From Naegleria gruberi (lineage: Eukaryota), in assembly GCA_000004985.1 (NCBI GenBank), contig GG738886.1: a DNA stretch of 64,000 nt; one strand, 5' to 3'. Numbering within the stretch: position 1 is the stretch's first letter; every line of letters begins with the position of its first letter. Of the stretch, positions 18,082 to 41,558 are shown piece by piece. The notes beneath the pieces were generated by a model, which was given only the letters and a program-made list of their open reading frames with translations, had not been told where the DNA came from and ran no database searches. Position numbers and translations under genes: made by a program.

Positions 18082-18717
18082 TTGATTATGATAATGGCCA
18101 ACAAAAAGTGTCATCCATCCAGACAGAAAAAAATGTTTAAAAAACAAACCTTGTGCTGCTTGCTCTTGTTAGCAACACTCTTCTTGCTCTCAACCTTCCT
18201 TTCAACTCCAATTAATTGTCAAGAACAGAGTGATGATAACTCCTCCGAATCACCATTCTCCAATCAATATGATTACTATCAAGTTTTGGGAATTTCACAA
18301 AATGCAACCACACAAGAAATCAAGGCTGCCTATAGAAAGCTCGTCATGAAGTATCATCCAGACAAACACAGAAACAAATCAATGGAAGAACAGGAAAAGA
18401 TAAATCAAACTTATCAGAAAATTGCTCAAGCCTACGAAGTACTTTCAAATCCAGAGCAAAGACAGCAATATGATGCATTCAAGGATTTTGCAGAGTCAAT
18501 TGGATTGGATGAAGCTTTCATTGAAATGTTGGTCTATCTTTTGATTGGAAGTGGATACTTATTGTTGGCTGTCATTGTTTTAATTTTGATTATTATTGTA
18601 TTGCTTGTTTCGATTAGTTGTTATTGCATTTGTAAATGTTGTTGCTGTAGAAGTAGTGGCAGTAGTGAAAAATCCAAGAGTGAAAAGAAACATTCAAAGA
18701 AGGAAAAACAACATTAA
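18082..18717 (+). CDS. J-domain (DnaJ) membrane protein with Cys-rich C-terminus
   Basis: J domain DYYQVLGISQNATTQEIKAAYRKLVMKYHPDKH. Hydrophobic N-terminal signal/anchor, a C-terminal TM segment (LLAVIVLILIIIVLLVSI) and a CYCICKCCCC cluster. Confidence 0.7.
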   Translation: MIMIMANKKCHPSRQKKMFKKQTLCCLLLLATLFLLSTFLSTPINCQEQSDDNSSESPFSNQYDYYQVLGISQNATTQEIKAAYRKLVMKYHPDKHRNKSMEEQEKINQTYQKIAQAYEVLSNPEQRQQYDAFKDFAESIGLDEAFIEMLVYLLIGSGYLLLAVIVLILIIIVLLVSISCYCICKCCCCRSSGSSEKSKSEKKHSKKEKQH

Positions 18718-19075: not shown

Positions 19076-19727
19076 TTATTCTTGTGGTTGTTGAGGAATA
19101 GAGACTTCATAATTCTTAATATCATCCATGGCTTGGTTTCTGTGATAATCCTTATCAATGTTTTCAGCCTTCAAGAACCTACAAAGCTTCTTATCCGTAA
19201 TACAAATGTGTGTAATCAACCAGTCAGACAAAAACATAAGAGCTTCCATCGCAAATCTAGAATTGTGAGTTTCTTCAACCTTTGATTTCAGGGAGAAGAT
19301 CTTTGAAATGAATTTTCTGTGAGTTTCCTTATGGTTGTCTTTAACGCTTGCTTCATAAGCAATACATCTGTCCATCAAGGACTCTTCTTCTTTAAAGTGG
19401 AAGTCAGTGTAGATAGCAAGTCTTTCAAAAACTTCCAGAATGAGGTCCATATCACCCATATTGATAGCGTGGTTAAGTTTGTTGATAAGGATGACTAAGA
19501 CTTTGTGTTGTTCGTCAATCATGTTAACTCCTAACTTGTATTCTTGATCACTCCAAGGAATAAGAACCTTGCCGGTAAGGAATTCGTCTAATAAAATGTT
19601 TAACAAGAATAAAAAGTAACTTCTACTTACCATCAGAGTGTGGTTGAGCACCTTTTCCTCCCTTATTCTTCTCTGTATCTTGGTCTGAAGATTGTTTATT
19701 ACCCATGCATGAAGCTGATCCGCCCAT
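19076..19727 (-). CDS. Hemerythrin-like protein with N-terminal myristoylation motif; join(19727..19631,19587..19076)
   Basis: Hemerythrin HHE metal-ligand pattern: IDEQHKVLV, HFKEEE, H..H..F and the spacing downstream. Exon 1 (MGGSASCMGNKQSSDQDTEKNKGGKGAQPHSD) is joined to exon 2 through a 43-nt GTAAGT..TAG intron (19588..19630). Confidence 0.7.
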
Positions 19728-20541: not shown

Positions 20542-21663
20542 TTAAATCTTTGTTTCTACCATAACCACTCTTTCATATCCAGACAAATCTTTAGCTGTTC
20601 CTAAGAATTGAAGACTTGATCTGCTATTGATAATTCTTTCTCTCAATGAATTAGCTTGGTCATAGCCAACCTCCATTACGCAATGACCATTCAGATTATA
20701 CTTGCTAGAGAGTACATTATCCACAAGTAGGTAATTGTAAAAATCAAATCCATCCAATCCTCCATCGAGTGCCATGTGTGGTTCGTGTGTTGAGACATCC
20801 TTATCAAGTTCATTTTGCACAACATTGGTTGGAATGTATGGAGGATTACTAATGATGAGATCCATCTCCAAATCCTTATGAATCCAATCATCATCTTTGA
20901 AAATGTCGTGCTGGATAAACTCTAATTCTTTCAAATCTTTTCCTGCCAATTCCATATATTTTGGAATGAGATTTTGTGCATTTAACGTGGCAACTTTTAA
21001 AGCTCCCTCACTCTTATCAATACCAAATGCCCTCACTTTTTGAAGGCCAATTTTTTCCAATTCCAATAAGAGAGTAATCAAGAGACAACCACTCCCAACT
21101 CCAATTTCCATAATTCTCAAAGGTCTATCAAGTTGAGACAAATTTGTCACACCGTTTCTTTTCAAAATGAGTGGAACAATTTGATTGAGTGTTGTTTCAA
21201 TTAATACTTCTGAATCAACTCTTGGAATTAAAACTCTTGAATCAACATTAAAATTCCTCCCAAAAAAGTCTACATTTCCAACAATATATTCCATTGGTTC
21301 ATAATTACATCTTCTCTTGATAAATTCCTGAAATTTTAAATACTCATCATTGGATACTTTTCGTTCTCGTTTTAATTGATTATATAATTCCATAGGTGTT
21401 CTTTTCAATGATGGACAAAGGGTGTGAAATAATAATTGGCGAGCTTCTCCCTCTGCATCATGTTCAATGTGTTTAAATTGAAGTGAGTTCCGAAGTTGAT
21501 TTTCTCCAAACTCCAAAGCACTTTTAACATTTACATTTGAAAGATTAGATTGATGATGGAAGTAGCGAAATGTCAAACTATTCCGAATATTTGTTAGTGG
21601 TGATGACATGGATTTAACTTGGTTGGCAATAGTGTGGTTACACCAATAAACAACTTGTTTCAT
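20542..21663 (-). CDS. HemK/PrmC-family N5-glutamine methyltransferase (MTQ1-like)
   Basis: Catalytic NPPY motif (LIISNPPYIP) and the SAM-binding region MEIGVGSGCLLITLL. The architecture matches release-factor glutamine methyltransferases. Confidence 0.75.
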   Translation of the reverse strand: MKQVVYWCNHTIANQVKSMSSPLTNIRNSLTFRYFHHQSNLSNVNVKSALEFGENQLRNSLQFKHIEHDAEGEARQLLFHTLCPSLKRTPMELYNQLKRERKVSNDEYLKFQEFIKRRCNYEPMEYIVGNVDFFGRNFNVDSRVLIPRVDSEVLIETTLNQIVPLILKRNGVTNLSQLDRPLRIMEIGVGSGCLLITLLLELEKIGLQKVRAFGIDKSEGALKVATLNAQNLIPKYMELAGKDLKELEFIQHDIFKDDDWIHKDLEMDLIISNPPYIPTNVVQNELDKDVSTHEPHMALDGGLDGFDFYNYLLVDNVLSSKYNLNGHCVMEVGYDQANSLRERIINSRSSLQFLGTAKDLSGYERVVMVETKI

Positions 21664-21751
21664 TTTTTTTATTTTACAATTTAATTGAGATTATCTATTC
21701 ACATGAAAGATGGCAAGTTGTAAATGTGCATTGGGACGGATAACAGGCCAA

Positions 21752-22777
21752 TTACTTTCTTTCACCAAACTTGGAGTGACCTGTCTTTTTGGCGTGAAGA
21801 GTAGCCTCTTTTTCTCCCTTAATAAATTCACCACATTGAAGACATTTCAGCGTGAAAGTGGCAGTGTCAGTAAATTGATGTTGATTGTGGAGTTGTTTTA
21901 CAAGTTCAAGGGCTTTTGTAGAGGAAATGTCATCATCTGCTGGCAGGATTGTAATGTCCAATTCTTCTGGACCTTGTGGAACTGGATTAATGGCCAATGC
22001 ATCATAGTGAATACCATCATAGAGGAGAAGAATTTTCCCCTTAATTAATGGATCTCCTTCGCCATAGACATCTCTTCTATTCGATGTCACATCAAAACTG
22101 TCCACACGAATATTGTAAAATTGAGACAAGATCATAATTTCCAAACTTCCACCCCAGCTATTATCTTTCATAATCCATTCACAGTAAGCCTTTGGACTTT
22201 GTCCCAAAATTGCTTCATTGAATTGGATAGGGTCGTTCAAAATCCAATCTCTAATGACTCTTCTCAATGCAGGAGCTCTCTTCTTTTTCCTTGATTCACA
22301 TCCTTCCAAACAATATGCAAATGCATTGAAAAGACAAGAATTGTCACTGTCTATTACTCTTTTGATAACAACACTCTCAGCAATAAGTGTCGAATCATCT
22401 GTTCCAACTGAATGTGGTCTTGGAGGCACATCAGAATATGATTCAGGCTTGATAATCTTGTAGCTTGATGGAGTTATATCATCATCTTCCACTACTATTG
22501 GTTGAGAATTATTTACAATAGAGGCATATTCACTAGTCTCCTCAACAATAAGTGATTCACCAGATTTTACTCCAATATCACTCAACTTTTTTGCATTGAA
22601 TTCCGATTGATTTTGTTGGCCAGCAATTTCTTGTGGAGGAAATCCCATCTTTAATTTTTGTTTTGATGGCTCGATTTTACTCTCTTTTTGTATTTGTTGT
22701 TTGAGCCAATCAACAGTGGAGGAAAAATCAACTCCTCTTAGGGCCATCTGAGAGGCTGGTAGTCTAATTCGAATCAT
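21752..22777 (-). CDS. OTU-domain deubiquitinase OTU1/YOD1-like (UBX-like N-terminus, OTU core, C-terminal C2H2 zinc finger)
   Basis: N-terminal ubiquitin-like fold MIRIRLPASQMALRGVDFSSTVDWLKQQIQ. OTU catalytic Cys box DNSCLFNAFAYCLEG. C-terminal C2H2 zinc finger CLQCGEFIKGEKEATLHAKKTGH. Confidence 0.8.
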   Translation of the reverse strand: MIRIRLPASQMALRGVDFSSTVDWLKQQIQKESKIEPSKQKLKMGFPPQEIAGQQNQSEFNAKKLSDIGVKSGESLIVEETSEYASIVNNSQPIVVEDDDITPSSYKIIKPESYSDVPPRPHSVGTDDSTLIAESVVIKRVIDSDNSCLFNAFAYCLEGCESRKKKRAPALRRVIRDWILNDPIQFNEAILGQSPKAYCEWIMKDNSWGGSLEIMILSQFYNIRVDSFDVTSNRRDVYGEGDPLIKGKILLLYDGIHYDALAINPVPQGPEELDITILPADDDISSTKALELVKQLHNQHQFTDTATFTLKCLQCGEFIKGEKEATLHAKKTGHSKFGERK

Positions 22778-39803: not shown

Positions 39804-41558
39804 ATGGGAAATACACAACAGTCAAAGCCTGGTGGCCATTCTTCAATGAAGGGAATTTCTTCATCAACTTCCGTATCTAATAAGAGCAATAGTGAGGTTC
39901 CTCCCTCACAGAAATCAAAGCTTCCCTTGGAGAATATAATTACCTGTTTTAATGTTGAAGAAGGACCACTCTTCATATCTAAAGAAGCAAGAAATTATAA
40001 AGCCAGCTCGTTGAATCAGCACTCCATCTTGGATTTGAGAACAAATCAAAGGCTATTAGAGATTTTACAGAAGAGAATTAAATTACCAACAACAACACTG
40101 GAAAATAGCAATCCTAATGATAATATACAAGTATCAATGGTGATAATAGTGGTGCAAATGTTGTAAATGCTGATCAGAATGAGGAAAATAATAATGAAGA
40201 TCATCTGTTATCGGAAGAGTTATTATTGCTTTCTGAATATAAAAAGACGATAACAGAGAGGGTGAAACGATTCTATTTGGATGAAAGTGTTATGGGGGTG
40301 GAGGAAGAAAGAGCATTTGCTTGCTTGTTGGGATTAATGATTGGCGATGCTTGTGGAGCTCCACAAGAATTTTCATGGTATAAAGTACCTCCAAAGGTTT
40401 CATCTGAATCTGAATGGTTAGTTGACAAGATTTGGAAGCAGGATAAGGAATTTTTCGAGTTGACCTCAATGAATGATGAGCATGTTTGGAAAAAGCCACA
40501 CCATAACAAGTTCTTTTTGAAAGTTGGTCAATTTACTGATGATTCCAGTATGGTAGGTAGTAATATTCATTTGTTTGCAATTCTAATTTCATAATCATCA
40601 AAAATTATAGGCCTTGTGTGTTATGGATACACTAGTACAAAAGGTAATTGATGAAATTCATCAAAGGGAATGTCTTAATGCGGAGCAAAATAATGAAAAC
40701 TCGTTCAATTTTGATGGAAGAGAAATGAGACTTAGATTCCTCAATTGGGTTTATTTTGGATATAATAACACATTTGGAAAGGATGATTCAACACCTGGAT
40801 ATGGATCATCATGTGGATTGGGTTCAAATGTCAGAAGTTCCATTGTTGAGTTTATGAAAGATCCTAAAAGTGAGTTAACAAATGCAGGCGATTTAAATAC
40901 TTCTGGAAATGGAAGTATAATGAGATTAGCTCCTGTGCCAATATTTTGTTTGAAACTTGTGGAGAGTTTGGATAATACCGAACAAGTGGAATCTGCTTTA
41001 AGGATGGCTCACAAGCACAGCAAGACAACTCATCAAGGTGATGAAGCAGCAGAGCTTTGCAGGTTAATGACTTTCATAATTATTAATGCTGCCAAAGCTG
41101 CACACTCTATGAAACCACTCGAAATCAAAAAGCACATCTTTGACTTGTTGGAGAGTGGGAAATTCCAAAGCACTGTGGAGAGTGTCAATTGTCTTGTAAA
41201 GAGTCAAGTTGAAAATGGAAATGTAGAGGCAAGAAATTGGAATTGGAAAGATTTAAACTATCAGTATTGTCCTGAAAGAGCAGAAAAGGATAAGGGATAC
41301 ATTGGTTCGTATGCAATGGATGCTATGGCTATGGCCTTACATAATTTGGCTTTTACAGACTCATTTGAGGATGCCATCTTGCTGACTGCTAACATAGCCG
41401 GTGATTCAGACACAGTATCTGCCATTGTTGGACAGATGGCAGGAGCAATTTATGGGCTAAAGGCTGTTCCATTAGACTGGATTGAAAAGGTTTTATTCTG
41501 GGATTACAATGAGGATATTTTATTGAGATTATCAATTATTTATAATCATAATTTTTAA
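39804..41558 (+). CDS. ADP-ribosylglycohydrolase (ARH/DraG family) with N-terminal MGNTQQS myristoylation motif; join(39804..40130,40178..40552,40611..41558)
   Basis: ARH motifs FACLLGLMIGDACGAPQEF, SGNGSIMRLAPV and ANIAGDSDTVSAIVGQMAGAIYG. Introns of 47 nt (40131..40177) and 58 nt (40553..40610), both GTA..AG. Confidence 0.75.

Follow-up and report, generated by a model that had tools for sequence, protein, structure and literature searches.

A hemerythrin with a predicted fatty-acylation anchor in Naegleria gruberi points to a group of putatively membrane-tethered hemerythrins in amoeboid protists

Hemerythrins are known as soluble carriers or stores of O2, or as sensor domains fused to other proteins. 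Here we describe a gene from a 64,000-nucleotide stretch of the Naegleria gruberi genome (contig GG738886.1, assembly GCA_000004985.1; hereafter the window) that encodes a hemerythrin domain preceded by a linker and, at its extreme N-terminus, by a motif for fatty acylation. We consider the product to be, most probably, a membrane-tethered hemerythrin: a di-iron protein of the bacteriohemerythrin type held on the cytosolic face of a membrane by its acylated N-terminus. Its lipidation, membrane location, ligand binding, and physiological role are all predictions. The gene is deposited in the databases yet uncharacterised, and its interpretation as encoding a lipid-anchored protein appears to be new. 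Together with its relatives, it suggests, by sequence, that amoeboid protists possess a class of membrane-tethered hemerythrins not described before.

The gene and its parts are listed below, with positions numbered along the window.

19076-19727 (-): hemerythrin gene, read directly from the reverse complement
19727-19631 (-): exon 1, 97 nt; its last base is the first of codon 33, and the spliced product is XP_002674140.1
19630-19588 (-): intron, 43 nt, GTAAGT...TTATTAG, phase 1, containing an in-frame stop
19587-19076 (-): exon 2, ending in a TAA stop at 19076-19078
19692-19727 (-): anchor, codons 1-12, MGGSASCMGNKQ; predicted to be N-myristoylated at Gly2 and S-palmitoylated at Cys7, with Ser6 as the consensus residue
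19632-19691 (-): linker, codons 13-32; hydrophilic, rich in Lys, Gly, Ser, Asp, and Glu, a predicted disordered tether
19160-19573 (-): hemerythrin domain, residues 38-175, four-helix bundle
19079-19159 (-): C-terminal tail, residues 176-202

The window is AT-rich (31-38% G+C) and eukaryotic. The start ATG at 19727 sits in A-rich surroundings (ATAATAAAAATGGGC), and the 32 codons plus one base of exon 1 translate as MGGSASCMGNKQSSDQDTEKNKGGKGAQPHSD. If left unspliced, this frame is open for 34 codons and then meets a TAG, which lies two codons inside the intron. The intron was chosen after enumerating every GT-AG pair that leaves the frame open; its ends read GTAAGTAGAAG...TTTTATTAG, with a consensus-like GTAAGT donor and a T-rich tract ahead of the terminal TAG, and the frame of exon 2 opens with DEFLTGKVLIPWSDQEYKLGVNMIDEQHK. 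The spliced product of 202 amino acids matches exactly an N. gruberi protein (XP_002674140.1 / EFC41396.1 / UniProt D2VPA3; NAEGRDRAFT_70784) whose database label is only "predicted protein." The coordinates, the 43-nt intron, and the N-terminal sequence given in an initial annotation of the window, made from the DNA sequence alone, were right, the spliced product being identical to this entry. We are confident that the locus is NAEGRDRAFT_70784 and that its gene model is correct.

The N-terminus was examined with a PROSITE-type rule, MG-{EDRKHPFYW}-x-x-[STAGCN]-{P}, and MGGSASC is the sole sequence that fits it among the 313 ATG-initiated open reading frames (ORFs) of at least 30 amino acids in the window. 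The initial annotation had drawn attention to Gly2, a small residue at position 3, Ser6, and Cys7, and the translation bears this out, with Gly2, Gly3, Ser6, and Cys7 all present. Its description of the N-terminus as a textbook myristoyl-plus-palmitoyl anchor holds in part: the Gly2 rule is obeyed and a cysteine is nearby, but position 3 is occupied by Gly and the cysteine stands at position 7, so that the canonical Cys3 form (MGC...) is not the one present. The segment after the motif (MGNKQSSDQDT, about residues 7-17) contains no hydrophobic stretch. N-myristoyltransferase (NMT) is near-universal in eukaryotes; a statement about the Naegleria enzyme was not found in the searchable literature, in which the one paper that names both concerns the Plasmodium enzyme. 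Naegleria has a homologue of UNC-119, found at the flagellar rootlet, and UNC-119 proteins are chaperones of myristoylated proteins (PMC4588520). From the sequence, myristoylation of Gly2 may be expected with good confidence; palmitoylation of Cys7 is favoured too, with less assurance.

The anchor also contains a nested second Met-Gly (M8-G9-N-K-Q-S13; 19689-19706 (-)), and a start at Met8 would likewise fit the rule, without the cysteine. In N. fowleri and N. lovaniensis, position 13 is occupied by Glu, and this nested motif is thus not conserved.

That the first exon belongs to the gene is indicated by its conservation. Orthologues occur in N. fowleri (FDP41_003544; 206 amino acids, 87% identical), N. 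lovaniensis (C9374_002761), Willaertia magna (ABK040_016291; 74%), and a metagenomic Naegleria. All five genomes carry a phase-1 intron at the identical site, directly before D(D/E)EFL; the intron sequences have diverged, and read-through meets a stop in each. The intron lengths are as follows.

N. gruberi: 43 nt
N. fowleri: 179 nt
N. lovaniensis: 167 nt
Willaertia magna: 53 nt
Metagenomic Naegleria: 39 nt

An anchor motif on a separate first exon, spliced to a hemerythrin domain, had been part of the initial annotation, and this exon-intron-exon layout is kept in Naegleria and Willaertia. Cys7 is present in all five orthologues. Gene order is conserved as well, with an OTU1 deubiquitinase, a PrmC/HemK methyltransferase, and the hemerythrin following one another in both genera (window 20542-22777 (-); L001-L003). 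The neighbour downstream of the hemerythrin varies by species. The W. magna orthologue has an additional 43-nt intron within the hemerythrin domain (L003 3511-3553) that all Naegleria genes lack.

Codon changes were tallied over the four Naegleria sequences.

Anchor, codons 1-12: 8 synonymous-only, 0 amino-acid-changing, 0 gapped columns
Linker, codons 13-32: 4 synonymous-only, 10 amino-acid-changing, 8 gapped columns
Hemerythrin region: 78 synonymous-only, 12 amino-acid-changing, 0 gapped columns

Anchor and linker differ in their codon changes (Fisher p=0.0017). Residues 1-12 are identical in the four Naegleria, and G2, S6, and C7 are also kept in Willaertia. The purely synonymous changes from codon 1 to codon 12 show that this stretch codes for protein and is under as much constraint as the metal-binding domain, in contrast to the drifting linker; by this comparison the anchor codons are under purifying selection and the linker is not. 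Relatives that lack the intron give a second line of evidence. In these, one ORF contains both the motif and the domain and has the MG codon as its first ATG, and an in-frame stop lies just upstream of this codon in seven of eight contigs. The anchor-linker-hemerythrin architecture is therefore independent of any assumption about splicing.

These relatives came from an exhaustive HMMER search that covered 1.84 billion cluster representatives and returned 14,951 matches at E<=0.001. Nearly all matches are bacterial and are single-domain proteins of approximately 135 amino acids, tandem-domain proteins, or fusions to signalling domains. A few have long, low-complexity, eukaryote-like N-terminal extensions, and every one of these begins with the Gly2 motif. 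Twelve sequences form the first set; a thirteenth, P0213, was added by a further profile search. The Logan and European Nucleotide Archive (ENA) members stem from SRR10674841/2, SRR28082858, SRR12418001, SRR25336392, and ERZ27237394, runs that are cited in no searchable paper; the genes adjoining the one on contig L008 give no taxonomic clue.

P0012, P0001, P0013, P0014, the four Naegleria (P0014 metagenomic): MGGSASC, Cys7
P0002, Willaertia magna orthologue: MGSSASC, Cys7
P0017, Logan assembly: MGSAHCT, Cys6
P0021, second Willaertia magna paralogue ABK040_003321 (L009 2001-2546): MGSALSVKKKKKE (MGSALSVKKKKK), basic stretch
P0024, Logan assembly: MGGAVSL, no obvious second signal
P0039, Logan assembly: MGNACTT, Cys5
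P0117, Logan assembly: MGCSASIQ, Cys3
P0166, ENA assembly: MGCSASVQ, Cys3
P0033, Logan assembly: MGSAICT, Cys6
P0213, N. lovaniensis C9374_008278, 292 amino acids: MGSALSVGRKSSTKK, basic stretch

The Gly2 rule is obeyed by 13 of 13 members, which have in common Gly2, small residues at positions 3 and 4, and Ser, Thr, or Cys at position 6. Their extensions range from 35 to about 185 residues and their linkers are unalignable; the Gly2 motif is nonetheless kept throughout. On this sequence comparison the motif is the mark of an entire group among the eukaryotic hemerythrins, which is more than chance would produce. The second membrane signal varies, being a cysteine at positions 3-7 in ten members and a basic stretch in two, with neither in the remaining one. 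The two with basic residues in place of the cysteine (P0213 and P0021) belong to a paralogue family that begins MGSALSV; judging from the sequences, the group as a whole is represented by two or more paralogues in Naegleria and by two in Willaertia. The window contains no further hemerythrin locus, and the N. gruberi counterpart of the MGSALSV type, if any, lies elsewhere in the genome. Some bacterial matches also start with MG. These have no extension, the domain beginning at residues 2-7, and they are irrelevant here because bacteria are not known to have NMT. The G+C content of the members' contigs spans 0.28-0.51, which implies that several organisms are involved, the named ones being Naegleria and Willaertia.

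In three relatives the MG start was masked by automatic gene calls (L007 start 165, L008 start 1795, and L012 start 533), which chose a downstream Met in two cases and an upstream GTG in one. For P0117, the in-frame upstream ATG that comes first on the contig gives MGCSASIQ; for P0166, a GTG had been called as the start, whereas translation from the first ATG yields MGCSASVQ; and for P0033, the ORF extends a further 12 codons upstream, where it begins with MGSAICT behind an in-frame stop. Since choices made in gene calling hid these starts, acylation motifs are easily missed in metagenome and Logan protein sets. A fourth automatic call ran through an intron across a TGA (L004 305-949).

Conservation of the first 12 residues does not in itself identify the function that is selected, and the N-terminus could instead have a non-lipid role, as a translation-initiation context, an N-degron, or an organelle targeting peptide. 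The residues common to the 13 members, however, are exactly the NMT determinants, while the rest of the extension is variable; moreover, the segment is hydrophilic and resembles neither an amphipathic presequence nor a signal peptide. We consider a non-lipid role very improbable, and give it the least credence of the alternatives considered here.

The body of the protein appears, from sequence and predicted structure, to be a bona fide O2-binding member of the bacteriohemerythrin-type family. It matches the Pfam family PF01814 over residues 52-167 (45.7 bits, cut-off 25.3; 1.2e-11), the NCBIfam bacteriohemerythrin model NF033749 (105.6 bits, cut-off 84; 2e-30), and TIGR02481 (99.7 bits, cut-off 51.75), and falls under the threshold of the animal-type model TIGR00058 (48.7 against 131.85). 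Its closest solved relatives by sequence are the hemerythrin-like domain of DcrH (DcrH-Hr) from Desulfovibrio vulgaris (PDB 2AVK, 4.5e-16; also 2AWC) and the bacteriohemerythrin of Methylococcus capsulatus (McHr; PDB 4XPX), with which it shares family, fold, the seven iron ligands, and the Trp/Leu of the hydrophobic O2 pocket. The alignment with DcrH-Hr covers every ligand motif (IDeQHk, HFkeEE, HKEtHRkF, and HIxxxDKK). The di-iron ligands are H60, H96, E100, H118, H122, H159, and D164, in the pattern H...HxxxE...HxxxH...HxxxxD, and are invariant in 12 of 12 members of the first set. W155 and L156 of the pocket are likewise present in all 12; among the other matches, the Trp is found in 197 of 197 and the Leu in 164 of 197. 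Ligand spacing suggests that L156, which stands three residues ahead of the sixth ligand, corresponds to L114 of McHr and L98 of the P. gouldii protein.

An AlphaFold2 model built from a 50-sequence alignment has predicted local distance difference test (pLDDT) values of 95-98 over residues 40-175 approximately, with helices at 54-76, 79-106, 112-139, and 142-173. The N-terminal 35 or so residues are modelled with low confidence (pLDDT 46-61 over residues 1-40, and 46-51 over 1-30). The top Foldseek matches are DcrH-Hr structures (2avk/3waq; target-normalised template modelling score [TM] 0.89-0.90, root-mean-square deviation 1.9-2.0 A) and McHr (TM 0.84-0.85). The C-terminal tail is a low-confidence region with a short helix at 185-194; it is partly kept in the Naegleria and Willaertia orthologues (AENIDK.Y.R..AMDDIKN.E), with 12 of its 27 columns amino-acid-changing. 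Four residues past the last iron ligand lies Cys168 (in KKLC, 19181-19183 (-)), which is present in 12 of 12 members of the first set as against 5 of 197 other matches (p=6e-16), and also in P0213. Cys168 could be a redox or read-out residue. A further cysteine, Cys161, is found in the Naegleria and Willaertia orthologues only.

These features can be assembled into a mechanism for tethering. Methionine aminopeptidase would remove the initiator Met and expose Gly2, to which NMT would attach myristate co-translationally. Myristate alone gives only transient membrane binding, so that a second signal is needed. In the N. gruberi protein, S-palmitoylation of Cys7 by a membrane DHHC enzyme would lock the protein on the membrane; in the MGSALSV paralogues, electrostatic binding through the basic patch may take its place. 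The disordered, hydrophilic linker of approximately 30 residues would then keep the four-helix domain within a few nanometres of the bilayer, where it would bind O2, and probably NO, and act as a local sensor, buffer, or scavenger. The interchange of cysteine and basic residues among homologues is the classic two-signal pattern and is, in our view, the best reason to think that selection has acted on membrane binding. By analogy with other systems, sensing or buffering of O2 or NO at the membrane is a plausible role.

Several points weigh against this interpretation, and some of them concern the gene model. If transcripts began downstream of exon 1 or the intron were retained, that exon would be irrelevant, the product soluble, and the MG motif a coincidence. 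The identifiers XP_002674140, D2VPA3, NAEGRDRAFT_70784, A0A6A5BS88, and FDP41_003544 occur in no searchable full text, and neither transcript nor peptide data for the gene, exon 1 included, were found there or in the searchable supplements of PMC11964265, PMC8134430, and PMC9035749. Patterns for the spliced junction and for the anchor-coding sequence gave 0 matches against metagenome contigs; this collection also lacks the Joint Genome Institute contig L004, which the anchor pattern should match, and the scans are therefore uninformative. In N. gruberi only, an ATG at 19633 (-) overlaps the splice donor, and retention of the intron from this ATG would yield a protein of 185 amino acids that runs into the hemerythrin domain from a hydrophobic N-terminus, MVSRSYFLFLL (MVSRSYFLFLLNILLDEFL, MVSRSYFLFLLNILL-DEFL...). 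Prokaryote-style gene callers, for their part, give 150-amino-acid products that start at an internal Met (P0003 and P0016). The ORF from the intronic ATG was rejected as a conserved feature, however, being missing in N. fowleri, N. lovaniensis, and Willaertia, and a start at the internal Met55 would remove a conserved N-terminal part of the domain that aligns with bacterial N-termini. Such a model would also have to accommodate the purely synonymous variation of codons 1-12 and the intron-less relatives, with motif and domain in one ORF behind upstream stops. We regard an error of this kind as very improbable.

Other points concern the anchor itself. Compared with most proteins of proven dual acylation, the distance from Gly2 to the cysteine is greater here, and in P0024 a second membrane signal is not obvious. 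The protein might thus be myristoylated but not constitutively anchored: myristate could serve a reversible switch governed by ligand or redox state, or act as a signal for protein-protein contact or UNC-119-dependent trafficking, and Cys7 could have another role, for example as a redox thiol. The off-canonical position of Cys7, the two members with basic residues in its place, the UNC-119 homologue at the flagellar rootlet (PMC4588520), and the retention by the group of a second unusual cysteine, Cys168, beside the metal site would all suit this alternative. Against it, a cysteine occurs within 3-7 residues of Gly2 in ten of 13 members and its position varies, as would fit a palmitoylation site chosen for proximity to the membrane and not a structural or catalytic thiol. 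Furthermore, the prediction shows the first 35 residues as disordered and not packed on the domain, which leaves no obvious pocket to sequester myristate. We consider a switch or trafficking signal unlikely, although less so than an error in the gene model, and continue to favour a stable tether.

Tree support for a single clade is weak. When the best 209, 100, or 80 domains are joined by the neighbour-joining method, the point estimate places the 12 eukaryote-type sequences together to the exclusion of all others, but bootstrap values for a single origin are only 6-9 of 100 (133 columns), and a single origin is therefore not claimed on tree evidence alone. Cys168 is a shared character independent of the trees, and we regard common ancestry as likely; repeated gain of the anchor would be as interesting as a single origin.

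Finally, the N. gruberi hemerythrin that has been studied experimentally is cytosolic and serves as a cytosolic marker (PMC8134430). This protein, like Nfa1 and "Nf hemerythrin" (A0A6A5BXL4), comes from the same organisms and the same O2-binding superfamily, and the studied Naegleria hemerythrins are monomeric cytosolic proteins of about 13-15 kDa. Nf hemerythrin, the soluble paralogue from N. fowleri, binds O2 and NO and consumes NO; according to its cloning primer it begins MATTIPSP, and it thus has no Gly2 motif (PMC11964265). The comparison with soluble amoeboflagellate hemerythrins that the initial annotation had proposed shows the two kinds to be distinct. The soluble Naegleria proteins are not among the best 150 of the 14,951 HMMER matches, which indicates a separate lineage. 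"Single-domain and long" O2-binding hemerythrins of N. gruberi are on record, with the extension left uninterpreted (PMC4919030).

The bacterial hemerythrins occur as soluble single domains or as fusions to transmembrane signalling proteins, as in the Hr plus MCPsignal proteins among the matches. Both DcrH-Hr and McHr act beside a membrane: DcrH-Hr, the cytoplasmic part of a transmembrane chemoreceptor, is generally taken to be a module that senses O2, and McHr reportedly supplies O2 to the membrane-bound pMMO. The N. gruberi protein differs from the bacterial ones in having neither a partner domain nor a transmembrane segment, its sole membrane device being the predicted acylation motif on a disordered linker, and in adding the group-specific Cys168 and a C-terminal tail of 27 residues.

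The same design, a small O2-binding metalloprotein with an acylated N-terminal extension, is found in the N-acylated globins, which include globin X (GbX), GLB-26 of C. elegans, and arthropod globins. Zebrafish GbX is both myristoylated and palmitoylated, and both sites are required for membrane targeting (PMC3176823); protection of membrane lipids and redox sensing or signalling have been proposed as roles of membrane-bound globins (PMC3176823, PMC3520999). GbX has a haem globin fold, whereas the N. gruberi protein is a non-haem di-iron four-helix bundle, and the likeness is thus one of analogy and not homology. In its Gly2, small residue at position 6, and nearby cysteine, the anchor resembles the SH4-type N-termini of Src-family kinases, G-alpha subunits, plant CBL1, and kinetoplastid HASPB and calflagins, and the alternative of myristate plus a basic patch, known from the same class, recurs in P0021 and P0213. 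The cysteine stands at positions 3-6 in most proven SH4-type cases and at position 7 in the N. gruberi gene. Dual acylation targets CBL Ca2+ sensors to the plant plasma membrane, and CBL-related sequences occur in Naegleria (PMC4990929). No report of an SH4-type anchor on a hemerythrin was found in the part of the literature that is searchable. Likewise, no description of a lipidated hemerythrin was found there, as far as the titles and abstracts of the listed papers co-mentioning hemerythrin and myristoylation indicate, and, by their titles, the papers listed for Naegleria and myristoylation do not have hemerythrin as their subject.

Two other genes in the window bear mention. The initial annotation had linked the hemerythrin to a neighbouring ADP-ribosylglycohydrolase at 39804 that also starts with a myristoylation motif. 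A multi-exon ADP-ribosylglycohydrolase gene is indeed present at 39804-41558 (+), with PF03747 at 40614-41558 on the same strand as an upstream ORF that begins MGNTQQSKPGG; 429 GT-AG combinations keep the frame open across its exon joins in a brute-force enumeration of introns. The gene is, however, 20 kb from the hemerythrin, and MGNTQQS, although it is the start of the ORF, fails the rule because position 6 is Gln and the Ser is at 7; it therefore adds nothing to the case for the hemerythrin. Adjoining the 3' end of the hemerythrin gene in convergent orientation is a DnaJ-domain gene (PF00226) at 18082-18717 (+). The N-terminus of its product is hydrophobic and signal-like; the protein also has a transmembrane segment and, next to the membrane, a string of cysteines (SCYCICKCCCCRSS) that resembles a multi-palmitoylation site and recalls the cysteine-string proteins.

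A broader picture can be drawn only tentatively, and we think it improbable. The group could represent an ancient family of eukaryotic hemerythrins that sense gases while tethered to a membrane, the lipid-anchored counterpart of DcrH-type receptors. Dual acylation would place its members on the plasma or flagellar membrane, as with kinetoplastid calflagins and HASPB, and O2 or NO at the di-iron site, perhaps acting via Cys168, would control aerotaxis, the switch from amoeba to flagellate, encystment, or the ability to withstand host NO.

The closest parallel to the N. gruberi protein is provided by acylated globins such as globin X, whose discovery made it necessary to ask what function gas-binding proteins have at membranes. 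The orthologue in the pathogen N. fowleri (FDP41_003544) has an identical anchor. If the interpretation is true, Naegleria, including N. fowleri, and its relatives would set an O2- and NO-reactive di-iron centre directly at a membrane. This would bear on oxygen sensing and buffering in amoebae that tolerate microaerophilic conditions, on resistance to macrophage NO, a role already proposed for the soluble paralogue, and on NMT as a drug target in N. fowleri.

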